Sequence record: MT129652.1
DNA from: Escherichia phage MN01
DNA length: 64,000 nt
Strand: one strand, 5' to 3'
The position numbers were made by a program, and so were the translations under genes. Shown here piece after piece: positions 1,524 to 59,490 of this stretch (its first letter is position 1; every line of letters begins with the position of its first letter). Under the pieces are notes generated by a model. That model did no database searches and had not been told where the DNA came from. It saw only the letters and a list, made by a program, of their open reading frames with translations.

Positions 1524-2483
1524 ATGATGTTAGTTATTGGTTCTCGTGCATTACATAACGCTGGCCTGATTGAAAGTCAGAAAATTGAAAACTCTGATTG
1601 GGACTTCATCGCTGACCAAGGTTCCTGGAACCACTTTAAAGCACGTATGTTCGGTGCTCATGTTCCTGTGGATAACCCTGATGTCCAAGCTTTTAAATGT
1701 ATGTACAATGGCAAAGAAACTTATTTTGAAGCTTATATTGTCCGTGCCCTGACCAACGTACGAGAAATTACTGGTGAGCTTCAAGACGAAGATTTCACCT
1801 CAAGTTATCGTCTCTTGAAATACGCTGAAAATCATATTAAGAAAGACCGTCTTACAGGTTTCTATTGGGCAACTCCTGATATTTGTCTGGCAATTAAACT
1901 GTCTCATCGTTACCTGAAGAACAATCCATTCTTCCTGAAGACCATGAGCCATATTAATTACCTTCGTAATAAGGGTGTTGTTCTTAATGATGAACTGCAG
2001 AAAATCATGCTGCAACGGCAGGCAGAAACACTGTCATACAGCCACCCTAAACTAGACGTGGGCAAGAAAACTTTCTTTAATGATACAATCTATACCCTTG
2101 ACCATGACTCCATCCACGAGGCCGTGGCGCTTGCTGATAAGCCTGCATATAAGTTCTATATGAAGGATGATTCAGAAGTCATGACCTCGCGTGAAAAATT
2201 TGAAGCACTCCCTGATGTTATTAAACTGGCAGGTGTTTATGAAGAAGCATGTGTACTTGCTCTGGAGCGTTCGCAGGTTCCCAATGAGTTTAATATCTCT
2301 CCATCCGTGAGCTTCCATATTGCTCTGGAAAAAGTCTGCACCTCCATTACTTCTGGATGGTTCCGTGAGTATGCCTGGGAACATTACCAGGAAGTGGTTA
2401 ATATGTACAACACCCTGGGTCGCGAAGACTATGTTAAACGTTTCAAGGCTAACCAACATTTAATTCGTCCTTTCACAAAATAA
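1524..2483 (+). CDS. Hypothetical protein (319 aa)
   Basis: Internal ATG at 1524 preceded by GAGGAAAAT SD; long open frame typical of phage coding density. Confidence 0.6.
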   Translation: MMLVIGSRALHNAGLIESQKIENSDWDFIADQGSWNHFKARMFGAHVPVDNPDVQAFKCMYNGKETYFEAYIVRALTNVREITGELQDEDFTSSYRLLKYAENHIKKDRLTGFYWATPDICLAIKLSHRYLKNNPFFLKTMSHINYLRNKGVVLNDELQKIMLQRQAETLSYSHPKLDVGKKTFFNDTIYTLDHDSIHEAVALADKPAYKFYMKDDSEVMTSREKFEALPDVIKLAGVYEEACVLALERSQVPNEFNISPSVSFHIALEKVCTSITSGWFREYAWEHYQEVVNMYNTLGREDYVKRFKANQHLIRPFTK

Positions 2484-2542
2484 GTGTGTACATCCAAGTG
2501 GGACTATGACACAATGGTCCCACAATCAATGAGGAAAATATT

Positions 2543-3229
2543 ATGAACGGTCCAAAAACTTTTAATTCTCAAGCTCATGCAGTAGGCAGTTTCGCTGGTA
2601 AAATTTCTAATGATAAAATCAAAAACGAAACTATGTTCTTTAACAGCTCATTGGCTTTCGCTTTTGACAATGGTGGCCCTATTACTCGTAGCTTTATCAT
2701 GAGTCTGCCGGATGATTGGAACACTGACCAGGTTGTATTTGATTCTCGGGTTCATATGCTTATGCCTGGTTGGTATCCTGCTATCCCAGGTTATCACCAT
2801 GATGATGTACCACGCCCGGATATTCCGGTTGGTCAACACTTTATTACTGCAGGGCAACCTGATTATGATAATCCTCGTTACCATTCTGAACATATTCTTG
2901 GTCTTGTTAACGCTGATGTGTGTCCTACTTATTTTGCAACCGGAACTGCGCAATTTAGTCAGATTCCTGAAGGCGAACTTATCTATCGCCAGTGGCATAA
3001 AGAAGTTCTGGAAAAAATTGAGTCCAATGAATTAACCAAGTGGGATGCTCCTGACCGCACGTTGCTCCAGTTTGATTGGCAGACATGGCATACAGGTTCT
3101 CGCGCAGTAAGTAATGGTTGGCGCTGGTTTGGTCGTGTGTCTCGTAATACTGACCGTGTTAAAAAGATTACAAATGAAATCCGCGTCAATGCTCAAGTAT
3201 ATCTGGAATTCCCTATGGAGGGCTGGTAA
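2543..3229 (+). CDS. Hypothetical protein, possible 2OG-Fe(II) oxygenase/cupin-like
   Basis: 228 aa; His/Asp cluster GYHHDD followed later by WHTGSR...RVSR, resembling an HxD...H...R triad; promoter-leader with inverted repeat upstream. Confidence 0.55.
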   Translation: MNGPKTFNSQAHAVGSFAGKISNDKIKNETMFFNSSLAFAFDNGGPITRSFIMSLPDDWNTDQVVFDSRVHMLMPGWYPAIPGYHHDDVPRPDIPVGQHFITAGQPDYDNPRYHSEHILGLVNADVCPTYFATGTAQFSQIPEGELIYRQWHKEVLEKIESNELTKWDAPDRTLLQFDWQTWHTGSRAVSNGWRWFGRVSRNTDRVKKITNEIRVNAQVYLEFPMEGW

Positions 3230-3816
3230 TGGCCCTTTATGAACCCGGCTGCATGGGTGTTGATGTAAACTTCATCCGCCGGGCAGAAAATACAGGTATA
3301 ATTGTATCAAGAGACGAATTTATGATTACCAAAAAATATTGGGCGAACCTTGATGATGGTGATGAAGGAATCAAGGTGGAAAATGTTGATTGGTCGCGAT
3401 GCAATCGTCATGTGAAAGAGCTTTTAATTAAGGAATATAAAATGGGATACATCATTAATGGGCATCAACCAGAACCGCTCAAAGAACAGACACCCGACCC
3501 ATTAATTTCTTATAGCAAGAAATATGGATTTCGTACCTGGAGTGATGAATTTGATAAGTTGATTTGTTCCAGGTTTTATGCCTGGGCTGGAATCTTATTT
3601 TTACCATTCCTGTGGTTTTTCTTGACAGGCAAAAATGAAGCACCCGTAGCTGTAATGGGCGCGTGCTTTTCTACTGCTCTTGCTGGGCTTATTGCATCAT
3701 TTTTATGGACTATGGTTATTGAAGTACCTTTTCGTATTTCTAAAGTTAAAAAGGTATATGACGATATCACTAAGAAAAATACATTGAACTCCTTTATTGA
3801 GGAATGCCGTAAATGA
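3229..3816 (+). CDS. Hypothetical membrane protein
   Basis: 195 aa; TAATG overlap with upstream stop; C-terminal hydrophobic helices (WAGILFLPFLWFFL, ALAGLIASFLWTMVI). Confidence 0.55.
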   Translation: MALYEPGCMGVDVNFIRRAENTGIIVSRDEFMITKKYWANLDDGDEGIKVENVDWSRCNRHVKELLIKEYKMGYIINGHQPEPLKEQTPDPLISYSKKYGFRTWSDEFDKLICSRFYAWAGILFLPFLWFFLTGKNEAPVAVMGACFSTALAGLIASFLWTMVIEVPFRISKVKKVYDDITKKNTLNSFIEECRK

Positions 3817-4526: not shown

Positions 4527-5018
4527 ATGAATATATTCGAAATGTTACGCATAGATGAAGGTTGTAAGTTGGATTTGTATAAAGATACTGAAGGCTATTG
4601 GACCATTGGTATCGGGCAACTGATAACTAAGAACCCATCAAAAGATGTTGCTCGTGCCGAGCTCGACAAACTCATGGGTCGCGTCTGTAATGGTCGCATA
4701 ACCCAGCACGAAGCTGAAACATTGTTTAACCGTTCGGTCGAAAAAGCTAAAGCCGGAATCTTGAGACACCCTGTCTTAAAACCTGTTTATGATGTGCTAG
4801 ATGAAGTTCGTCGTTGTGCACTCATTAATATGGTATTCCAGATGGGTGTTGCTGGTGTTGCTGGTTTTCCTAAGGGTATGCGACTTCTGAAGTCTAAATC
4901 ATGGGAAGCAGCTGCTAAGGAACTGGCGGACTCAAGATGGTATAAAGTCCAGACTCCGAACCGAGCCAAACGAGTTATAGAAACGTTCCGTACTGGAACT
5001 TTTAGCGCATACAAATAA
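4527..5018 (+). CDS. e: Endolysin (T4 lysozyme e, muramidase)
   Basis: N-terminus [12 protein letters not shown]...[13 protein letters not shown] and [12 protein letters not shown]...PNRAKRVI closely match T4 lysozyme. Confidence 0.95.
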
Positions 5019-5026
5019 GGTAAAAT

Positions 5027-5329
5027 ATGAAAACGTATAAAGAATTTATCACCGAAGCGCGCGTAAGTGCAGGTAAATTAGAAGCCGCTGTAAATAAAAA
5101 GGCCCATTCATTTCATGATTTACCAGATAAAGACCGTAAGAAACTTGTAAGCCTTTATATTGACAAAGAGCGTATTCTAGCTCTCCCTGGCGCTAACGAA
5201 GGTAAACAGGCCAAGCCTTTGAATTCTGTCGAAAAGAAAATTGATAACTTTGCTTCTAAGTTCGGCATGTCTATGGATGACCTTCAGCAAGCGGCTATCG
5301 AAGCAGCTAAAGCAATTAAAGGTAAATAA
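5027..5329 (+). CDS. Internal head protein (IPIII/IPII-like) with capsid-targeting sequence
   Basis: Starts [11 protein letters not shown], matching the T4 internal-protein CTS MKTYQEFIAE with an I-x-E protease site; 100 aa; adjacent to e as in T4. Confidence 0.7.
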
Positions 5330-5331
5330 CA

Positions 5332-5384
5332 GTTTACTTCCACGATACGTGTGATATAATGTTCTCCTACAAACATAGGAGAAC
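5332..5384 (+). promoter_or_regulatory. Sigma70-type early promoter followed by SD-sequestering hairpin upstream of denV
   Basis: GTTTAC (5332-5337), 17-bp spacer, TATAAT (5355-5360); then GTTCTCCT/AGGAGAAC inverted repeat (5361-5384) containing the SD. Confidence 0.5.
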
Positions 5385-5388
5385 AAAC

Positions 5389-5805
5389 ATGACTCGCATT
5401 AATTTGACCCTGGTATCTGAACTTGCTGACCAACATCTTATGGCCGAATATCGTGAACTTCCTCGCGTGTTTGGCGCTGTTCGTAAGCATGTGCAAAATG
5501 GTAAAAAGGTTTCTGACTTTAAAATCCCATCATCTTTTCTTTTAGGGACTGGTCATGTCACCTTCTTTTATGATAAGCTTTTGTTCCTTAAAAACCGACA
5601 TCAAGAACTTATTGCGGAATGTTTAAAGCGAGGGTTTAACATAAAAGATATTTCTACCCAAGACTTAACTGATATTCCTGATGAATGGAAGAATGATTAT
5701 CAACCATCAATCTGGTCAATTGAAATCAGTCAAGCTAGGCTGAATGAGAAAATTTCTCAAAAGCCCGCTTGGTACAAATACTATGGGAAAGCTGTGTACG
5801 CTTAA
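5389..5805 (+). CDS. denV: Endonuclease V (pyrimidine-dimer DNA glycosylase)
   Basis: [35 protein letters not shown]... near-identical to T4 endonuclease V; 138 aa. Confidence 0.92.
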
Positions 5806-19912: not shown

Positions 19913-20247
19913 AACAACGTTTAGCTGAAGATATTGCAGAAACTGCATTTCCAGAATGGACCCCCGCTGTGGGGGTTAATAAAGGTCTTTTAAAATTTAT
20001 TGAAAACGCCGAAGGCGAAGACCTTGTACAGTTAGGAAAGATTCATGGCTGTGATGATTATAGTCAGGTTCCCGATTGGGATATGGTAATGGCTATGGTT
20101 CGCCGCCGTGAACGCGCTTCTAAGAGCGTTCCAAACTGTCCAGAATGCGGAACTGAACAGGTCCAGTTGGTCCATTGGCAGACTAGCAATCTTCGTTATA
20201 AATGCAGACATTGTAAACACAAATTTGAGCGAGAAGAAAATGATTAA
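19909..20247 (+). CDS. Hypothetical zinc-ribbon protein
   Basis: 112 aa; CPECG-x17-CRHCKHKF zinc-ribbon pattern. Confidence 0.5.
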   Translation: MKQRLAEDIAETAFPEWTPAVGVNKGLLKFIENAEGEDLVQLGKIHGCDDYSQVPDWDMVMAMVRRRERASKSVPNCPECGTEQVQLVHWQTSNLRYKCRHCKHKFEREEND

Positions 20248-20419
20248 TTTAGACGAATTAAAAAAGCTTAAAGAAAAATGTGCTTTGGATATAAATGACT
20301 TCGCAAAACAAATTTGTGAAGTCCAGCCCATGCCGGATAATTTAGTGTCAGACATCCTGGAAGCACTTGATGGTAAATCACTTGTAATCAGTCCGCGAGA
20401 AGAAAATGGCAAAGCGTAA
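20240..20419 (+). CDS. Hypothetical small protein
   Basis: Internal ATG at 20240; 59 aa. Confidence 0.35.
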
Positions 20420-20648
20420 AGAATATCTTGAGACTGCTGATAAGGTGGTCCGTGAATTAACTCTGGCCTATTATAAAGAACACGGTAAACTTCCGGATAG
20501 TTATTCAGTATTGAAATCTGCTTTAACTCGTTCATATAATAATATGCGTTCAGAAGTTTATGGTATTATGGTCAAACATAAAGAACAAACCGGTCAATAC
20601 CCCGATTATACTGAGACCTTCAAACAAGTATTAGGAATTAAGGAATAA
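20406..20648 (+). CDS. Hypothetical protein
   Basis: 80 aa ORF. Confidence 0.45.
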
Positions 20649-28122: not shown

Positions 28123-29138
28123 AAATTTTAAATTTAGGTGATTGGCACTTGGGTGTCAAAGCTGACGACCCATGGGCTCAAAACATTCAACGTGATGGTA
28201 TTTTACAGGCGATTGCATATTCCAAAGCGAATGGAATTAAAGTCTGGATTCAATATGGTGATATTTTTGACGTCCGTAAGGCCGTAACGCATAAGACGAT
28301 GGAATTCAGCCGTGAGATTATGGAACTCCTTCGTGAAGCAGGAATTACTATGCACACGATAGTCGGGAACCATGACATGAATCTGAAGAATAAGATTCAT
28401 CCTAATGCTATCACTGAACTCCTGAATAAGTATGACCATGTTAAAATCTACGACAAGCCAACGACTGTTGATTTTGACGGTTGTCAGATTGATATGATTC
28501 CATGGATGTGTGACGAGAACGCGACTGACATTCATCAACACATCAAAACTTCTGGTGCCGAATATTGCATCGGTCACTGGGAATTAACCGGGTTTTATTT
28601 CTATAAAGGATTGAAATCCCACGGGCTTGAGCCTGATTTCCTTAAGAAGTACAAGCAGGTTTGGTCTGGACACTTCCATACCATTTCAGAAGCTGCAAAC
28701 GTTAAGTACATCGGGACACCATGGACATTAACGGCAGGTGATGAGAACGACCCGCGCGGGTTCTGGGAATTTGATACCAAAACCGAAGAGATGAAATTTA
28801 TTCCGAATGAAACCACCTGGCATCGGAAGATTTTCTATCCAAACGAAACTATTAACTACGACGACTTCAAAGACTTATCAGTCCGTGTTATTGTAGAAAA
28901 AGTCGATAAAGACCTGACCAAGTTCGAATCCGAATTAGAAAAGCGTGTGCATGAATTGCGTGTTGTCAATAAGGTTGATAACAGTGTTGATACGACTGAC
29001 TCCGAAGAAGAGTTAGATATAAAACGCTTAACTGATATGATGGCAGAATATATCGATGCATTACCTGACGCCAATGAGAAAGAATCAAAAGCTCTCAAAG
29101 CATTGGCCAACAAATTATACCTTGAGGTGCAACCATGA
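28119..29138 (+). CDS. 47: Recombination nuclease subunit gp47 (Mre11/SbcD-like)
   Basis: MKILNLGDWHLG phosphoesterase motif I, GDIFD, GNHD motifs; 339 aa as in T4. Confidence 0.92.
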   Translation: MKILNLGDWHLGVKADDPWAQNIQRDGILQAIAYSKANGIKVWIQYGDIFDVRKAVTHKTMEFSREIMELLREAGITMHTIVGNHDMNLKNKIHPNAITELLNKYDHVKIYDKPTTVDFDGCQIDMIPWMCDENATDIHQHIKTSGAEYCIGHWELTGFYFYKGLKSHGLEPDFLKKYKQVWSGHFHTISEAANVKYIGTPWTLTAGDENDPRGFWEFDTKTEEMKFIPNETTWHRKIFYPNETINYDDFKDLSVRVIVEKVDKDLTKFESELEKRVHELRVVNKVDNSVDTTDSEEELDIKRLTDMMAEYIDALPDANEKESKALKALANKLYLEVQP

Positions 29139-29398
29139 GACTTTATGATTTTAATGAAGCGGGGCTTGAGCATATCCGCGAATGTGATGTGGTTGACGAC
29201 GATAATCAACCGAATACTATTAAGTATTGGTTTGAAGCTATCACTGACCGGGAAACCGGTCAACTTATCAAAGTCTATGTAGTCACCGATTGGGCCGTGG
29301 AATTTAGCTTTAATGTAATGGAAGATGATACTCCAGAGACATTAATTCATATGGCTGAATCATGCATCAAGGATGCTTATTATGATGAAGACTTTTGA
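29135..29398 (+). CDS. Hypothetical acidic protein (46.2 position)
   Basis: 87 aa; ATGA overlap; synteny between 47 and 46. Confidence 0.5.
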   Translation: MRLYDFNEAGLEHIRECDVVDDDNQPNTIKYWFEAITDRETGQLIKVYVVTDWAVEFSFNVMEDDTPETLIHMAESCIKDAYYDEDF

Positions 29399-29591
29399 AT
29401 TTAATCTTGACGATGAATTTGTAGCAAATATTGATTATACCGAAGAAGATTCTAGATATATCGGAATAATTTATATCACATCAAAAACGGCGCAGGGAGT
29501 GGTTTGCATGGCTGAATTTGATGAATGCTTTTTAGATTATGATGATATGATAGAATGGTCTAAAAGATACATTAAAAGGAATCTTTTGTGA
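29373..29591 (+). CDS. Hypothetical acidic protein (46.1 position)
   Basis: 72 aa ORF. Confidence 0.45.
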   Translation: MLIMMKTFEFNLDDEFVANIDYTEEDSRYIGIIYITSKTAQGVVCMAEFDECFLDYDDMIEWSKRYIKRNLL

Positions 29592-31270
29592 AGACTTTTA
29601 AGCTTAAGAAAGTTATCTATAAAAATATTATGTCGGTTGGTGCTCAACCGATTACTGTTGAACTGGATAAAGTCCAGAAAACTCTGGTCACCGGCAAGAA
29701 TGGTGCGGGTAAATCTACGTTCCTTGAAGCGGTTACTTTTGCTATGTTCGGTAAGCCTTTCCGTGATGTAAAGAAAGGCCAGTTGATTAACTCGAGCAAC
29801 AAAAAAGATATGCTCGTTGAATTGTGGATGGAATATGATGGAAAAGAATACTATATCAAACGCGGGCAAAAACCCAATGTTTTTGAAATCTCTTGTGGCG
29901 GTAAACGTCTTGATGAATCTGCCAGCAGTAAAGACTTCCAAGCGGAATTTGAACAGCTTATCGGAATGTCATACGCCAGTTTCAAACAAATCGTCGTACT
30001 CGGCACAGCTGGATATACCCCTTTTATGGGCCTATCCACTCCTGCAAGAAGAAAACTCGTCGAAGACCTGTTAGAGGTTTCTGTACTGGCCGATATGGAT
30101 AAGCTGAACAAATCTCTTATCCGCGAAGTCAATAGCCAAATCCAGGTTATGGATGTACAGCATGACGGTATCGTTCAACAGATTAAAATCTATCAGGACA
30201 ATGAAGACCGTCAAAGAAAATTGTCAGGTGATAATCTGTTGCGACTGCAAACGATGTATGATGAACTTGCCACAGAAGCACGTGGAATCAAGGCAACTAT
30301 CGAAGAAGCAACGACAAGACTGACTGAAATAATCTTGGGAGAAGACCCCGAGCATGAACTCACGAAGTTAAAGCAGGAATCATTCCTGATTAAATCGAAG
30401 ATTGACGATTATCGAAAGGTTGTCAGCCTGTACGAGAAAGGTGGTTGTTGTCAGACTTGTGCTAGTCAGTTGCATCCAGGAGACCCTATTGTCGCCAGGA
30501 TTGAGTCAAAGATTGAAGAATGTAATGCATCGGCTGATAAGCATAAAGCTCGTCAGAATGCTGTTCAGGAGCAATTTGATACGTATTCTGCTGCAAGACA
30601 AAACCAGCGTACAATAGCACAAGACATTCAAACTAAGAAACAAACCTTAGTCCAGACTGTCGAAAAGGCTAAAAAGGTTAAAGCATTAATCGAGCAAGCC
30701 AAGTCAGAATTCATTGACCACGCAGCAGACATTAAAATGCTTCAAGACCAGCTTGATAAAATAGTCAAACAGAAATCTGACCTTGTGATGGAAAAATATC
30801 AACGTGGTATCCTAACGGATATGTTGAAAGATTCTGGTATTAAGGGCGCGATTATTAAGAAATATATTCCTATCTTTAATAAGCAGATAAACGCTTATCT
30901 TAAAGTTATGGAAGCTGATTATAGCTTTACGTTAGATGAAGAGTTCAACGAAACGATTAAATCTCGTGGTCGTGAAGACTTCAGCTATGCATCATTTAGC
31001 CAGGGTGAAAAAGCTCGTATCGATATTGCATTGCTGTTTACATGGCGCGATATTGCTGCAAAAGTATCTGGTGTGCAAATTAGTACGTTGATTCTGGATG
31101 AGGTCATGGATTCAGCCACTGACGCCGAAGGCATCAAAGCTATCCAGGCAATTATCAATAAATTGGAAGGTCAAAACGTGTTTATCATCAGTCACCGAGA
31201 CCATGACCCAGAAGCATATGGACAGCATCTTCAAATGAAAAAAGTCGGTCGATTTACTGTTCTGGAATGA
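29588..31270 (+). CDS. 46: Recombination ATPase gp46 (Rad50/SbcC-like)
   Basis: GTG start; Walker A TGKNGAGKST, central coiled coil with CxxC zinc hook (GGCCQTCASQ), signature SQGEKARI, Walker B LILDEV; 560 aa as in T4. Confidence 0.93.
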   Translation: MKTFKLKKVIYKNIMSVGAQPITVELDKVQKTLVTGKNGAGKSTFLEAVTFAMFGKPFRDVKKGQLINSSNKKDMLVELWMEYDGKEYYIKRGQKPNVFEISCGGKRLDESASSKDFQAEFEQLIGMSYASFKQIVVLGTAGYTPFMGLSTPARRKLVEDLLEVSVLADMDKLNKSLIREVNSQIQVMDVQHDGIVQQIKIYQDNEDRQRKLSGDNLLRLQTMYDELATEARGIKATIEEATTRLTEIILGEDPEHELTKLKQESFLIKSKIDDYRKVVSLYEKGGCCQTCASQLHPGDPIVARIESKIEECNASADKHKARQNAVQEQFDTYSAARQNQRTIAQDIQTKKQTLVQTVEKAKKVKALIEQAKSEFIDHAADIKMLQDQLDKIVKQKSDLVMEKYQRGILTDMLKDSGIKGAIIKKYIPIFNKQINAYLKVMEADYSFTLDEEFNETIKSRGREDFSYASFSQGEKARIDIALLFTWRDIAAKVSGVQISTLILDEVMDSATDAEGIKAIQAIINKLEGQNVFIISHRDHDPEAYGQHLQMKKVGRFTVLE

Positions 31271-31275
31271 GCCTC

Positions 31276-31992
31276 TTATTGAGGCTTCATTTTGCAGTTA
31301 TCAAAATGCCAACGTTTCATATTAGCTGGCATACCGACTACATTACAGTGTGGACACTGAATTTTGGGGTCCACCTTTTTCTTCCGGTTTGGATTGGATT
31401 TGCAGAATTGTTGGTGAGTGGATATAACACACTTTTTACCTTCAAGCCCGCAAAATTCACAATTTAAAATTTCATGTTTAGCTTGTTTTAAACCTACTGA
31501 AATTTTTTGCTTTTGCTTTTCCGGAATAGTATGAACAACCTTGTTTGGACCTTTGGAACAGTTATCAAAATGCCAACGATTCATATTGCCAGCGAGACCG
31601 GTTTTTCCACAGTGTGGACATTCGACTCTCGGTTTTAATTTGGCGGATTCTGACATTTTCTTTCTGGTTTCATCGGAGAAAATTTTATTTTGTTGAGCTT
31701 CCAAGTTTTTACGACGAAGCCATCCAAATAATTTGTTTTTGCTTCTGTCGGCATTTGGTGCAGAAACTGTCATCATGCGCGCGGCATAGACCAAAGAAGC
31801 GTTATTTGGATGCATTTTGACCAACAGTTGATGGCAAACGAAATGTTCCTCGGGAGTTAAATCAACAAGATTTGAAGCGTCGTCAGCCCCACCCATACAA
31901 CGGGGTATAATGTGATGGCTTTCAGAGTATGTGGTTAATTTGCGATTCAATGCTCTGCTAATAAGCTTTTGGTAAATGATGTTATAATTCAT
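31276..31992 (-). CDS. HNH homing-endonuclease-like protein with duplicated C-terminal zinc fingers
   Basis: Only long minus-strand gene in the region; HNH core SESHHIIPRCMGGADDASNLVDLTPEEHFVCH; repeats CPHCGKTGLAGNMNRWHFDNC and CPHCNVVGMPANMKRWHFDNC; start taken at internal ATG (MNYNIIYQ). Confidence 0.7.
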   Translation of the reverse strand: MNYNIIYQKLISRALNRKLTTYSESHHIIPRCMGGADDASNLVDLTPEEHFVCHQLLVKMHPNNASLVYAARMMTVSAPNADRSKNKLFGWLRRKNLEAQQNKIFSDETRKKMSESAKLKPRVECPHCGKTGLAGNMNRWHFDNCSKGPNKVVHTIPEKQKQKISVGLKQAKHEILNCEFCGLEGKKCVISTHQQFCKSNPNRKKKVDPKIQCPHCNVVGMPANMKRWHFDNCKMKPQ

Positions 31993-32005
31993 ATCAGACC
32001 CTTGT

Positions 32006-32224
32006 TTGATACTGCAACGGATAATATTATTTATGAGCAATTTTTTAACCGGGCAGCATTTACTGGCTGTCCCTGAAATTAAACGGTATGTGTTAGTTAA
32101 TACCTTTTCGAAAGATGAACACCTTGTCACTGAACGTGACTTGCAAAACGCTTTCGGTGAAGAATATGTTAAAATAATCGCGAACAGACACAATGCCTGG
32201 TTCGCATATGAATACTTTGATTAA
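32006..32224 (+). CDS. Hypothetical protein (uncertain; 45.2 position)
   Basis: 72 aa ORF between the HNH gene and rpbA; no motif. Confidence 0.3.
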   Translation: MILQRIILFMSNFLTGQHLLAVPEIKRYVLVNTFSKDEHLVTERDLQNAFGEEYVKIIANRHNAWFAYEYFD

Positions 32225-32248
32225 TTGATAATGAATAGAGAGAATATT

Positions 32249-32656
32249 ATGAACAACGTAACTGCTAAAGATATCCAAGTTAAAACCATCCGCACTGACG
32301 CTAACCCGCATAACCAAAACCGTGTGCGCAAATCCTGGGTTCTGGCCTGTGATGAAGCATCTGCTACCCGTCTGCAGTCTCTGCCGCAAGAAATTAAATT
32401 CATGCTGTACGGTGTGATTGATACTGATGTATCTGATAAGTGGATTGAACTGATGCGTAATCACTACAACGATTCACTGGCTGCTGGTGCTAAACTGGTT
32501 ATCGACCGTGACGGTTCCGAACGTCTTGAAGATGATTATTGCGTTAACTCTGACGACCATCTGGTGCAAGCTGGTTCTATTATTGCTGCACAACTTCCAG
32601 AGTATATTGAATCTCTTCCGGAAGCTATCCGCAAACAAATGGCAGTTGTTGCTTAA
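32249..32656 (+). CDS. rpbA: RNA polymerase-binding protein RpbA
   Basis: Synteny between 46 and 45; about 135 aa; internal ATG after AGAGAGAAT SD. Confidence 0.55.
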   Translation: MNNVTAKDIQVKTIRTDANPHNQNRVRKSWVLACDEASATRLQSLPQEIKFMLYGVIDTDVSDKWIELMRNHYNDSLAAGAKLVIDRDGSERLEDDYCVNSDDHLVQAGSIIAAQLPEYIESLPEAIRKQMAVVA

Positions 32657-32686
32657 TTAATTTTGATTTGAATAAAAGGTAATTAA

Positions 32687-33382
32687 ATGAAATTCTCTAA
32701 AGACACTATCGCAGTTCTGAAAAACTTCACTTCCATTTACTCTGGCATTATGCTTAAGCCAGGTAATACCATCCTGACTCGTTCCGTAACTGGAGCGTCA
32801 TATGGCGAATCTGAAATCAATGATACAATTGACTTTGAAGCTGCGATTTATGACCTGAACGGCTTCTTAAGTATCCTGGGCCTGGTAACTGACCAAGCTG
32901 AAGTATCTCTGGCTGAAGACGCATCAAACATCATTATCAAAGACCAACGTTCAACGATTCACTGGCCTGCAGCAGACCCGAGCACTATCGTGTTCCCTGC
33001 TAAGAAGATTCCTTTCCCGGTAGCTAAGGTTATCTTCGACCTGAAAGGTAGTGACCTGCAGCAGCTTCTGCGCGTGGCTGGTGGTTTGTCTCTGGATACT
33101 TTTGCAATCACCAACAAAGACGGTAAGATTGTTATCCATGGTTATAATCAGCTCGAAGATAAAGAGTTGGCGCGTCCATTGTATTCCCTGGTGTGTGGCG
33201 ACTACGAAGGCGATGCAGCGTTTAAATTTATCATTAACAAACTGAACATGAAAATGATTCCGGCTGATTACCGTGTTATGCTTTGGGCGAAAGATGATAA
33301 ATTTGCTACGAAGTTTGAAGGCACACAAGCAAGCTATGTGATTGCAATGGAACAAGGCTCTAGCCACGAATTCCAAGATTAA
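32687..33382 (+). CDS. 45: Sliding clamp gp45
   Basis: MKFSKDTIAVLKNFTSIYSGIMLKPG...TIHWPAADPSTIVFP...LLWAKDDKFATKFEG closely matches T4 gp45. Confidence 0.95.
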   Translation: MKFSKDTIAVLKNFTSIYSGIMLKPGNTILTRSVTGASYGESEINDTIDFEAAIYDLNGFLSILGLVTDQAEVSLAEDASNIIIKDQRSTIHWPAADPSTIVFPAKKIPFPVAKVIFDLKGSDLQQLLRVAGGLSLDTFAITNKDGKIVIHGYNQLEDKELARPLYSLVCGDYEGDAAFKFIINKLNMKMIPADYRVMLWAKDDKFATKFEGTQASYVIAMEQGSSHEFQD

Positions 33383-33405: not shown

Positions 33406-33438
33406 AGTACAAAGTAGAAACTAATATGAGGAAAATAT

Positions 33439-34398
33439 ATGTTAACGGTTAATGACAAAGAATTCATGTGGGAACAAAAATACCGCCCAGGTACATTATC
33501 AGAGTGTATTCTTCCTGCTCATGATAAAGAAACATTAGAGGCGATTGTTAAAAAAGGTTTGATTCCTAACTTGATTCTGGTCAGTAGTTCCCCTGGTACT
33601 GGTAAGACAACAGTTGCGAAAGCTATGTGCGCGGATACAAATTCTGATATGCTGTTTGTTAACGGCTCCGATTGCCGAATTGACTTTGTGCGTAATGAAT
33701 TGACTCGCTTTGCATCGTCCAAATCAATCGAAGGACGCCGCAAGGTAATCGTTATCGATGAGTTTGACCGTGCAGGTCTGGCTGAATCACAACGACACCT
33801 TCGCAGCTTTATGGAAGCTTATTCAAGCAACTGTTCAATCATTATGACCGCGAACAATATCGATGGCATCATCACTCCGTTGCAGTCTCGTTGTCGCGTA
33901 ATTAAGTTTGGTGAAGCAACTCCGGCTGACCAGACTACTATGATGAAAGAGATGATTCATCGCGCAGTCGCGGTATGTAAAAATGAAGGCGTTGAAATCG
34001 AAGACCTGAAAGTTGTTGCTGCTCTGGTTAAGCATAACTTCCCGGACCTGCGTAAGACAATTAACGAACTTGACCGTTACTCTGCAAAGGGTGTTATCGA
34101 TTCCGGTATTCTGAGTATCGTGACAAACAATCGCACGCCAATTGATGATGTGATTGATGCCCTTAAGGACCGCAACTTTAAAGTTCTCCGTGGTCTGGCT
34201 CCTAAGCATGCAAATGATTATTCAAACTTCATTGCAAAGCTGGCTGATGAAATGTACGGCAAACTGACTGGTGCAAGCATTATCCGTATGTATGAGATTG
34301 TGGGTGAGAATAATCAGTACCATGGCATTGCAGCCAATACCGAAGTTCACTTGACTTATCTGTTTGCTCAACTGGCTGGGGAAATGAAATGGCTGTAA
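33439..34398 (+). CDS. 44: Clamp loader large subunit gp44 (AAA+ ATPase)
   Basis: Walker A SPGTGKTT, Walker B VIVIDEFD, SRC motif; closely matches T4 gp44; 319 aa. Confidence 0.95.
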   Translation: MLTVNDKEFMWEQKYRPGTLSECILPAHDKETLEAIVKKGLIPNLILVSSSPGTGKTTVAKAMCADTNSDMLFVNGSDCRIDFVRNELTRFASSKSIEGRRKVIVIDEFDRAGLAESQRHLRSFMEAYSSNCSIIMTANNIDGIITPLQSRCRVIKFGEATPADQTTMMKEMIHRAVAVCKNEGVEIEDLKVVAALVKHNFPDLRKTINELDRYSAKGVIDSGILSIVTNNRTPIDDVIDALKDRNFKVLRGLAPKHANDYSNFIAKLADEMYGKLTGASIIRMYEIVGENNQYHGIAANTEVHLTYLFAQLAGEMKWL

Positions 34399-57180: not shown

Positions 57181-57592
57181 GGCTATTATGTTTAAAATTG
57201 GAAAGAGTTATTGCATTAAAGATTTAGATGGCTTCCTTAAACATGTCGGTATGCCCGGTAGCATTTTGAACCAACAAGGAACCTCTATTATTGATTTGGT
57301 TACTACCAAAGAGTTTTCAGTCACTAAGATGGAAGCAAATGTTGTTACGGAATTTAGTACTATCGATGGAACTGGATTTTCTTTCCATAGTCGTAATGGA
57401 ACCGGTCTTATTTTTGGTGATGAATTTAAATATTTTGAAGAAACCCCGATAAAGGAATGTGATTCTGAAATAACCGAACAGGAATCAAAAGAGGATATCG
57501 TTGTTACCGGTGGCGATGTTATTATTACGGTTAAAACTGAAGTCGGACGCCTACAAGCTATTAAAATGTTAGAGCAGCTTCGATTCAAATAA
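57173..57592 (+). CDS. Hypothetical protein
   Basis: 139 aa; terminator follows. Confidence 0.45.
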   Translation: MNEAIMFKIGKSYCIKDLDGFLKHVGMPGSILNQQGTSIIDLVTTKEFSVTKMEANVVTEFSTIDGTGFSFHSRNGTGLIFGDEFKYFEETPIKECDSEITEQESKEDIVVTGGDVIITVKTEVGRLQAIKMLEQLRFK

Positions 57593-57635
57593 AAGGCCTT
57601 CGGGCCTTTTTGCTTTAAAATATGTGACTTATAAT
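57593..57635 (+). promoter_or_regulatory. Terminator hairpin followed by a MotA-box middle promoter for gene 39
   Basis: AGGCC-TTCG-GGCCT + TTTTT; TTTGCTTTA, 12 nt, TATAAT (57630-57635). Confidence 0.55.
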
Positions 57636-57657
57636 ACCTCCATACACAAGAGGAAAG

Positions 57658-59490
57658 ATGATGATTAATAATGAAATTAAAGTACTCTCGGACGTTGAGC
57701 ATATCAAAAAACGTTCCGGGATGTATATTGGTTCCAGTTCAAATGAAGCGCATGAGCGATTCTTGTTTGGTGAATATAAGTCCGTAAGCTATGTTCCTGG
57801 TATTGTAAAACTGATTGATGAAATTATCGATAACTCTGTTGATGAAGCAATTCGCACCAGTTTTAAATTTGCCAATAAAATTGATGTCCAAATTAAAGAT
57901 AATCAGATTTCGGTTTCCGATAATGGCCGTGGTATTCCACAGGCAATGGTTACAGACCAAAACGGTGAACAAATCCCTGGCCCTGTTGCAGCATGGACTA
58001 TTCCAAAAGCTGGTGGTAACTTCGGCGATGATGCTGAACGTAAAACTGGCGGGATGAACGGCGTCGGGTCTTCTCTGACCAATATTTTCTCTGTATTGTT
58101 TACCGGGATTACCGCTGATGGTGCAAATGAAATCACCGTTAACTGCTCCAATGGTATGGAAAACAAATGTTGGTCGACTAAGAAATCAAAAGGTAAAGGT
58201 ACGACTGTTATATTTATTCCAGACTTTAGTCACTTTGAAGAAAATAGTCTGTCCCAGATTTATCTGGATATTACATTGGACCGTCTGCAGACTCTTGCGG
58301 TTGTTTATCCGGATATTCAGTTTACCTTTAATGGTAAAAAGGTTGATGGTAATTTCAAAAAGTTTGCCAAGCAATTCGGAACCGAAGTTGTTATCCAGGA
58401 AACTGATACAGTATCGATGGCCTTTACGACTAGTCCGGATGGTTTCCGTCAGTTGACTTATGTCAACAACATTCATACAAAGAATGGTGGGCACCACGTT
58501 GAATGTGTTATGGATGATATCTGTGAACATCTTCAACCAGCCATTAAACGCAAATATAAAGGCATTGAGGTGACCAAGGCACGAGTTAAAGAATGTCTCA
58601 CCATGCTTATGTTCATCCGCGATATGAGCAACATGCGATTTGATTCCCAGACTAAGGAGCGATTGACTTCTCCGGCTGGTGAAATTCGAAATCACATTAA
58701 GATTGATGCCAAGAAAATCGCGCAAGCTATTCTGAAAAATGAACCGCTGATTATGCCGATTGTTGAAGCTGCATTAGCCCGTAAATTGGCAGCAGAGAAA
58801 GCAGCAGAGACAAAGGCGAATAAGAAAGCTTCGAAGGCCAAGGTGCAGAAACATATCAAGGCAAACGAATGGGGTAATGATAAACTGGAAACGACTCTGT
58901 TCCTGACCGAAGGTGATTCCGCAACCGGTCCATTTATCAAGGTTCGCGACCGTGAATTGCAAGGTGCTTATCCGTTACGCGGTAAGTTCAAAAACACATG
59001 GGGTCTGAAAGCTGTTGACGTTATGAAGAACGCCGAAGCCTTTGATGTGTGTGCGATTACTGGTTTAACGATTGGACAACCGGCCGAGAATATGAATTAC
59101 CGAAACATTGCTATCATGACAGATGCGGATGTGGATGGTGTCGGTAGTATCTATCCATCGTTATTGGCGTTTTTCAGTAACTGGCCAGAGTTGTTCCATG
59201 AAGGACGAATTCGCTTTGTGAAAACTCCTGTTATTATTGCGCAGCTCAAAGATAAACAAGAATGGTTCTATTCTCTTCCTGACTATGAAGAAGCTAAGGA
59301 TAAACTTCCGAAGCACACCATCCGATATATCAAGGGGCTTGGTTCTCTGGAAGATGCCGAGTACAAACGCGTATTGCTCGAACCGGTATTCGAAGTTGTT
59401 GAATTACCTGACAACTGGAAAGAACTGTTCGAAATGCTCTTCGGTAAAGATTCCCAGCAGCGTAAAGATTGGATGAATGCGACACTATAA
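57658..59490 (+). CDS. 39: DNA topoisomerase II large subunit gp39, fused with the gene 60 portion
   Basis: GHKL ATPase motifs (IDNSVDEA, DNGRGIP, GGMNGVGSS) and C-terminal TOPRIM region in one 610 aa frame; close match to T4 gp39. Confidence 0.95.
   Translation: MMINNEIKVLSDVEHIKKRSGMYIGSSSNEAHERFLFGEYKSVSYVPGIVKLIDEIIDNSVDEAIRTSFKFANKIDVQIKDNQISVSDNGRGIPQAMVTDQNGEQIPGPVAAWTIPKAGGNFGDDAERKTGGMNGVGSSLTNIFSVLFTGITADGANEITVNCSNGMENKCWSTKKSKGKGTTVIFIPDFSHFEENSLSQIYLDITLDRLQTLAVVYPDIQFTFNGKKVDGNFKKFAKQFGTEVVIQETDTVSMAFTTSPDGFRQLTYVNNIHTKNGGHHVECVMDDICEHLQPAIKRKYKGIEVTKARVKECLTMLMFIRDMSNMRFDSQTKERLTSPAGEIRNHIKIDAKKIAQAILKNEPLIMPIVEAALARKLAAEKAAETKANKKASKAKVQKHIKANEWGNDKLETTLFLTEGDSATGPFIKVRDRELQGAYPLRGKFKNTWGLKAVDVMKNAEAFDVCAITGLTIGQPAENMNYRNIAIMTDADVDGVGSIYPSLLAFFSNWPELFHEGRIRFVKTPVIIAQLKDKQEWFYSLPDYEEAKDKLPKHTIRYIKGLGSLEDAEYKRVLLEPVFEVVELPDNWKELFEMLFGKDSQQRKDWMNATL

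Follow-up and report, generated by a model that had tools for sequence, protein, structure and literature searches.

A single long gene on the minus strand, located immediately beyond the 3' end of gene 46 in the DNA analysed here (a 64-kb stretch, hereafter the window), raises the question of whether it represents a functional endonuclease that moves between phage genomes, or a gene of some other origin or role. Free-standing HNH endonuclease genes are abundant and well known in T4-like phages. The DNA was assigned to a Gaprivervirus, i.e., a T4-like coliphage of the VR7/SP18 group, with best DNA matches that are 90-97% identical.

The locus between genes 46 and 45.2

The gene in question extends from 31276 to 31992 on the minus strand (ATG at 31992, TAA at 31278-31276) and encodes a protein of 238 amino acids, followed by the stop codon; the interval 31271-32005 given in an earlier note on this DNA is a loose bracket around this ORF. 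Its left neighbour is gene 46 (29588-31270, plus strand), which is preceded on the same strand by gene 47 (ending at 29138), gene 46.2 (29135-29398) and gene 46.1 (29373-29591). The right neighbour is gene 45.2 (32033-32224, plus strand), whose 63-residue product matches PHROG 1045 with an E value of 1.1e-29. The earlier note was correct in naming gene 46 as one flank but had taken rpbA for the other; rpbA follows gene 45.2, ends at 32656 and does not adjoin the endonuclease gene. Further downstream, and likewise on the plus strand, are gene 45 (32687-33382) and gene 44 (33439-34398). The product of gene 46 is an SbcC/Rad50-like recombination nuclease subunit, with which T4-type phages process broken DNA for recombination, and it is on recombination that homing depends.

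The assertion that this is the only long minus-strand gene was borne out for the whole window, in which it represents the sole credible minus-strand gene of at least 150 residues. Two further minus-strand ORFs that long plus-strand genes do not shadow, at 20032-20535 and 57208-57702, were rejected as genes, since they overlap tiled plus-strand ORFs and match no PHROG family. No paralogue of the endonuclease gene was found in the window. An Rfam scan of positions 30500-33000 returned neither a group I intron nor any other family, and an intron-encoded origin was therefore rejected; the gene is free-standing, being positioned between the conserved genes 46 and 45.2 and outside any intron or intein.

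Nuclease core, zinc fingers and known relatives

The encoded protein matches PHROG 655, annotated as 'homing endonuclease', with an E value of 6.6e-67. It contains the HNH core SHHIIPRCMGGADDASNLVDLTPEEHFVCH, and its beta-beta-alpha-metal catalytic core spans residues 24-54 (31831-31923, minus strand), of which H26, H27, N41, H50 and H54 are invariant in a family alignment of 24 homologues. The Pfam HNH model alone is sub-threshold for this protein (16.8 bits versus a cut-off of 21.4), while T4 MobB, which is 44% identical to it over the N-terminal 126 residues, passes the threshold of the same model. The motif SHHIIPRCMGG...SNLVDLTPEEHFVCH aligns with the HNH motifs of McrA and Cas8-HNH. A sequence search of the PDB yielded marginal HNH-motif matches only, and neither structure searches of the PDB with the predicted model nor an NCBIfam search with the protein sequence returned anything significant.

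The remainder of the protein harbours three CCHC zinc fingers with spacings of x12, x11 and x12, none of which is covered above threshold by any Pfam or NCBIfam model. Finger 1 (CPHC-x12-H-x3-C) comprises residues 125-145 and is encoded at 31558-31620, finger 2 (CEFC-x11-H-x3-C) comprises residues 178-197 and is encoded at 31402-31461, and finger 3 (CPHC-x12-H-x3-C) comprises residues 213-233 and is encoded at 31294-31356, in each case on the minus strand. The ligands of finger 3, i.e., C213, C216, H229 and C233, are invariant in all 24 of the 24 homologues, and this C-terminal finger is thus the family-invariant one. Finger 1 is preceded by a NUMOD3-like helix (residues 107-119), for which the NUMOD3 model is sub-threshold in the present protein but significant in homologues; in more distant relatives, NUMOD3 repeats often stand in place of fingers 1 and 2. 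From the letters alone, the earlier note had correctly recognized the HNH core, and its two fingers of the form CPHC-x12-WHFDNC are genuine and correspond to fingers 1 and 3, although finger 2 had been missed. The direct DNA repeats of about 50 bp that it reported at 31296 and 31562 are also real, yet extend over 62 nt at 31295-31356 (copy A) and 31559-31620 (copy B), being 77% identical and 264 nt apart; they are simply the coding sequence of fingers 3 and 1, respectively.

An AlphaFold (AF2) model built on the family alignment exhibits a mean pLDDT of 88.7 and predicts two HNH strands (residues 24-27 and 42-45) followed by a helix (residues 47-60), after which come repeated units composed of a helix and a hairpin-helix finger. 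Each finger is modelled as a beta-hairpin plus a helix, with finger 1 reaching a pLDDT of approximately 90.

Over the N-terminal 116-126 residues, identity to T4 MobB and MobE amounts to 44% (E ~1e-26 for residues 1-118), and both of these proteins share with the endonuclease the MNYxxIY start and the HHIIPRCMGG...N...EEH motif, while their genes are likewise free-standing between conserved genes. Mob proteins are by definition united by a common N-terminal nuclease domain, the C-terminal domain being specific to each protein (PMC2790892). In keeping with such a definition, the C-terminal part of MobB consists of two NUMOD1 repeats where the endonuclease has fingers, and MobE is only 141 residues long, with an ORF of its own that lacks a finger, whereas the endonuclease comprises 238 residues and three fingers. 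The insertion sites also differ, those of MobB and MobE being associated with alpha-gt or nrdA/nrdB, as opposed to 46/45.2, where gene 46 is the probable target. Furthermore, the endonuclease gene is antisense to its neighbours and has an apparent late-type promoter of its own, while mobE is devoid of a promoter of its own (PMC2790892). On the basis of the shared nuclease domain, the protein is counted among the free-standing HNH endonucleases of the T4 Mob group.

A second likeness was found in the C-terminal half, where BLASTP aligned residues 154-236 with the two-finger domain of I-TevIII at 35% identity (E = 4e-11). The I-TevIII protein used for this comparison is the full-length, 269-residue protein of phage Pu-Krd-SF5; the finger region of I-TevIII (residues about 208-266) is a tandem of CX2CX12-13HX3C units. 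Fingers 2 and 3 of the endonuclease align with fingers 1 and 2 of I-TevIII, respectively, and the two proteins have in common the finger spacing CX2CX11-13HX3C and the inter-finger linker CK-NPNR. In I-TevIII of phage RB3, which is encoded in the nrdB intron, each of the two CX2CX12-13HX3C fingers holds one zinc, and DNA binding depends on them; the protein is a dimer that generates a double-strand break with 2-nt 3' overhangs, and alanine mutants at H26, H27, N39 and H48 were assayed for cleavage and DNA binding (PMC1865063). These four positions are counterparts of the catalytic residues of the endonuclease, the H26 H27 N H pattern being present in both. In contrast, BLASTP detected no similarity between the N-terminal nuclease domains of the two proteins, I-TevIII resides in a group I intron whereas the endonuclease gene is free-standing, and the endonuclease has a third finger beyond the two of I-TevIII. 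Because of the lack of N-terminal similarity and of an intron, the protein was classified as a member of the Mob group with an I-TevIII-type binding domain, and not as an I-TevIII orthologue. Judged by their sequence, its fingers are of the known I-TevIII type, zinc binding, DNA binding and dimerisation by way of the C-terminal region having been shown biochemically for I-TevIII only, and the protein as a whole reads as a modular join in which a nuclease domain of the Mob type is combined with a finger domain that is of the I-TevIII type but has one finger more.

It is considered highly likely that the gene encodes a functional free-standing T4 'Mob'-type homing endonuclease, in which a Mob HNH domain, NUMOD3-like helices and three I-TevIII-type CCHC fingers are combined and which is predicted to cleave DNA. 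T-even phages commonly harbour defunct homing endonuclease genes (PMC2790892), T4 mobA and I-TevIII being examples, and the gene might thus conceivably encode an enzyme that no longer cuts and that is kept by linkage or mobilised in trans, as is the truncated I-TevIII of T4 by MobE. Such a state is unlikely, however, in view of the full-length ORF in all ten copies examined, the conservation of all catalytic residues and zinc ligands, and dN/dS values relative to the window copy of 0.06-0.15, also where dS exceeds 2. These values, together with the intactness of all copies, argue against a decaying remnant and are indicative of purifying selection on the endonuclease gene; moreover, no second endonuclease gene was found nearby in the window.

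Distribution of the gene and the foreign end of gene 46

Comparison of the 46/45.2 junction among relatives, which the earlier note had proposed as a check, separated five other carriers in the phage collection (P8, P479, DK-13, PSD2001 and TH15), in which the gene is intact and the protein 96-99% identical, from approximately 22 distinct close Gaprivervirus relatives without the gene; presence in all relatives with no sign of mobility, which the note had named as a refutation, was not what was observed. The inserted segment is 762 nt long (31271-32032), and in the empty alleles its place is taken by a 34-nt 46/45.2 intergenic region.

An alignment of 13 genomes (six carriers including the window, and seven non-carriers) spanning about 6 kb with 740 polymorphic columns contains 55 fixed differences between carriers and non-carriers. 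Forty-two of these fall within positions 31075-31269, at the 3' end of gene 46 (plus strand), and the other 13 within 31977-32044, a region that covers the junction and the first codons of gene 45.2, which starts with MSNF in carriers and MADF in non-carriers; the remaining ~4800 aligned columns contain none. The 3' end of gene 46 therefore appears as a foreign, apparently co-converted tract linked to the endonuclease gene, and it fits the pattern of MobE, an enzyme that nicks the adjoining gene, nrdB, in phage T2 and whose flanks are co-converted upon inheritance (PMC2790892). Outside the five other carriers, the tract is at best ~77% identical to any phage in the collection; the search for its donor within that collection was thus negative, which suggests that the donor is unsampled.

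The flanking sequences follow a different pattern. The nearest relative of TH15 in the flanks is the non-carrier VR26 (2-3% divergence), while TH15 is 8-9% removed from the other carriers; the window differs by 0.2% from the non-carrier TH54 in 45.2-rpbA, and P479 is nearest to the non-carriers VR20 and SP18. Within the tract and cassette all carriers are 0-4% apart, whereas outside the tract they do not group together, which implies that the genomic backgrounds hosting this one cassette and its hitch-hiking tract number at least three. Part of the tract (31192-31204) has reverted to non-carrier sequence in the window, which here differs from the other five carriers.

The insertion of a free-standing homing endonuclease gene that had been postulated for this locus is accordingly supported by the Mob-like domain, the 34-nt empty sites, the linked foreign tract, the presence in at least three backgrounds and the orthologues at this site in other genera, and mobility between phage genomes is supported by sequence comparison. 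In principle, the linkage of the foreign tract could also have arisen by ordinary recombination with some divergent phage, no nuclease being involved.

Orthologues that are 60-77% identical, equal in length and located at the same site in the same antisense orientation were identified in Dhakavirus (FB, MX01 and Bp7), Marfavirus (Klebsiella phage pzk-kv8, or kv8) and Tequatrovirus (RB32 and many others), while a record named Mosigvirus, with a protein 63-64% identical, is reckoned as a fourth other genus by database match. ORF054w of RB32 and its orthologues encode proteins of 238 residues with three fingers, as does the endonuclease gene, and share its site and orientation. The carrier RB32 and the non-carrier T4 are ~98% identical across genes 47 to 45, but only 70-92% identical over the final ~300 nt of gene 46, with gene 45.2 showing no difference; the divergent tract thus appears to be one-sided in the same way as in Gaprivervirus. 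In the Dhakavirus carrier FB, the C-terminus of gp46 is Tequatrovirus-like, unlike that of the non-carrier JS10. None of 23 T-even loci sampled from IMG/VR by way of gp46 C-termini carries the endonuclease gene, which suggests that the element is not highly invasive in that sample.

A domesticated nuclease, serving in competition with or exclusion of co-infecting relatives or parasites, or in regulation of neighbouring genes, with self-propagation being secondary, would be compatible with the overlap of the cassette with the 45.2 start and its replacement of the 45.2 promoter region, and has parallels in defensive genes derived from homing endonuclease genes in other phages (PMC10448857) and in I-TevI, which also acts as a repressor (PMC2988022). 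This role is nevertheless improbable, as selfish homing predicts just such a sporadic distribution (five of ~27 Gapriverviruses) and so closely linked a co-conversion tract, as a gene of benefit to its carriers ought to have reached fixation more widely, and as the sequence offers no sign of a second activity. That the gene is ancestral to the 46-45.2 region and was deleted from most relatives, as opposed to being a spreading insertion, is very improbable: although presence and absence alone leave gain and loss indistinguishable and copies are found at this site in five genera (including the record named Mosigvirus), the ~200 nt of gene 46 that are ~23% divergent from all non-carriers, in a region that otherwise diverges by 2-3%, point to import from a distant donor, carrier flanks fall in three lineages, and the empty alleles of Gaprivervirus, T4 and RB69 exhibit an orderly middle-promoter-like sequence that would not be expected after repeated precise deletions.

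The kind of element is already known, and the present case adds little that is new in kind: near-identical genes are labelled 'homing endonuclease' in GenBank, and the RB32 orthologue was annotated as 'similar to mobB' in 2006. In the literature, no account of an endonuclease located at 46/45.2 was found, the orthologues being known as database annotations, nor was any cleavage, nicking or mixed-infection study of the endonuclease or its orthologues. The value of the locus is that of a clean natural example, with a sharply bounded hitch-hiking tract of 200 nt in three backgrounds of one genus.

Predicted homing and expression

For a functional homing endonuclease of the Mob type, the events would be initiated by co-infection of one cell with a carrier and a relative that lacks the gene. 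The enzyme is expected to bind the 46/45.2 region of the non-carrier through its fingers and to nick or cut that DNA, probably in the last 200-300 nt of gene 46, whereupon recombination-dependent repair, with the carrier genome as template, would transfer the cassette together with the neighbouring end of gene 46. Self-cleavage of the carrier would probably be prevented by the divergence of its own gene 46 at the 3' end. Both the target position and the protective role of the divergence are suggested by the tract, which is always on the gene 46 side and has not been eroded by recombination. By analogy with MobE and I-TevIII, recognition and nicking or cutting of the non-carrier allele is probably the activity of the enzyme, which may nick, like MobE, or cut both strands as a dimer, like I-TevIII. 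A search of gene 46 for target or immunity determinants compared six carrier with 28 non-carrier alleles and found no column that separates the two groups. The presumed target region at the end of gene 46 encodes two motifs of the Rad50-like ATPase, Walker B and the His loop. The 46/45.2 junction would suit the mapping of Mob-type targets as well as the study of finger-imposed dimeric double-strand cutting and of cross-genus shuffling of the end of an essential recombination gene.

Several signals surround the gene. A hairpin, AGCCTC-TTATT-GAGGCT (31270-31286), lies where gene 46 and the endonuclease gene converge, the stop codon of the latter falling in its loop, with calculated energies of -14.5 kcal/mol for the plus-strand RNA and -12.0 kcal/mol for the minus-strand RNA. 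It was not called by a terminator scan. The hairpin is kept in FB, MX01 and kv8 and is thus part of the cassette in three genera, while the empty alleles are without it.

Upstream of the endonuclease gene, CATAAATA (32028-32035, minus strand) matches seven of the eight positions of the T4 late-promoter consensus TATAAATA, with C for T at the first base; it is situated 36 nt upstream of the ATG and overlaps the 45.2 start codon on the opposite strand. A perfect TATAAATA is found 35-45 nt upstream of the ATG in FB, Bp7, MX01, RB32 and kv8. Since this sequence occurs only four times in the window, chance is an unlikely explanation for its being conserved at this position in several genera. An AAGGG is present 7-11 nt before the endonuclease ATG. 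The gene is therefore probably expressed late, from its own putative promoter and on the strand opposite to that of the surrounding early and middle genes. A sigma-70-like match, TTAAAA-16-TATTAT (32021-32048, minus strand), also lies upstream of the gene and constitutes weak evidence, being the only such match in 1.4 kb as compared to 4.3 expected by chance.

In the empty alleles of Gaprivervirus, T4 and RB69, the interval that separates gene 46 from gene 45.2 contains a middle promoter with a MotA-box-like element, (T)GCTTTA-N11/12-TATAAT; the literature searched contained no published middle promoter for 45.2. In the window, AGCTTTT-N12-TATAAT (31964-31988, plus strand) is antisense to codons 2-10 of the endonuclease gene, and this sequence may replace the displaced MotA-box middle promoter and serve gene 45.2. 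In four genera, the occupied alleles have retained TATAAT opposite codons 2-4, while the box is not conserved in RB32. In Gaprivervirus, the empty-site promoter shares 11 nt, GATGTTATAAT, with the strand antisense to the start of the endonuclease gene; this identity is absent in other genera and was consequently rejected as evidence of homology.

On a bolder and less probable reading, the segment would be a self-contained expression cassette. It would then combine a hairpin that ends gene 46 transcripts, a late promoter of its own, a substitute promoter for 45.2-rpbA-45, and a three-finger nuclease that nicks like MobE, dimerises like I-TevIII and is aimed at the conserved ATPase end of gene 46. 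The hairpin would stop gene 46 transcripts before they run antisense through the endonuclease gene, and the substitute promoter, hidden antisense to the first ten codons, would stand in for the displaced MotA-dependent middle promoter. If this were true, the gene targeted for homing would itself serve the recombination that homing depends on. The gene 46 side of the cassette differs in RB32, where the hairpin is absent and the ends of gene 46 and of the endonuclease gene overlap by 8 nt.

Possible split and recombined relatives of the endonuclease

The CCHC finger that is invariant in the family of the window's HNH endonuclease (CPHCGKKVNKGNALRWHYDKCKFK) also forms the C-terminal end of NrdB.1 of phage T4, an 83-amino acid protein encoded on the minus strand (NC_000866, locus L102, positions 4717-4968), where it is preceded by NUMOD3-like sequence. 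Immediately upstream of, and adjoining, nrdB.1 lies mobE (positions 4992-5417 of the same locus), whose 141-amino acid product possesses an HNH domain without the finger. Based on these sequence features, T4 mobE and nrdB.1 together look like a full-length member of the window endonuclease family that has been split in two ORFs; nrdB.1 goes unmentioned in the paper describing MobE (PMC2790892).

The finger module furthermore seems to occur apart from the Mob HNH domain. Many environmental viral contigs from IMG/VR (loci L042-L100) match the window protein solely over residues ~100-236, its NUMOD3 and CCHC finger part; their matches do not extend to the Mob HNH domain, so that elsewhere this module appears to be joined to other N-terminal domains. 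Matches to PHROG families 27406 and 12324 are likewise limited to the NUMOD3 and CCHC finger part.

Gene 46 in carrier phages

Within the foreign tract at the 3' end of gene 46, positions 31192-31204 of the window carry the non-carrier sequence CACCGAGACCATGAC (encoding HRDHD), while the other five carriers exhibit five substitutions across this segment, a D to E replacement among them. Because the window, itself a carrier, has the non-carrier sequence in this small mosaic patch, the alignment suggests that this segment is dispensable for self-protection. In phage Bp7, gene 46, the neighbour of the endonuclease gene, is annotated as two fragments (locus L018, positions 2400-3732), which could represent a frameshift, a sequencing error or element-linked damage. 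In addition, tblastn matched several endonuclease orthologues (Bp7, IME281, 04086) in two pieces, over 732 nt rather than 714 nt.

Other polymorphic sites and minus-strand ORFs

Two further long minus-strand ORFs of the window, of 167 (positions 20032-20535) and 164 amino acids (positions 57208-57702), are probably not genes, as both overlap tiled plus-strand ORFs and neither matches a PHROG family.

Phages VR26 and TH15 possess an insertion of ~850 nt, absent from the window, between rpbA and gene 45 (window-equivalent 32658-32680), which encodes a 210-amino acid 'putative DNA endonuclease' on the plus strand. The rpbA/45 gap is a second polymorphic endonuclease site, less than 1 kb from that between genes 46 and 45.2. 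An insertion of ~535 nt between genes 45 and 44 of VR20 (window-equivalent 33415-33424), encoding a 196-amino acid hypothetical protein, was not found in the window or in the other relatives examined. Gene 46.1 (positions 29386-29588) represents another presence/absence polymorphism: the window has this gene, and SP18, VR26 and TH15 lack it.
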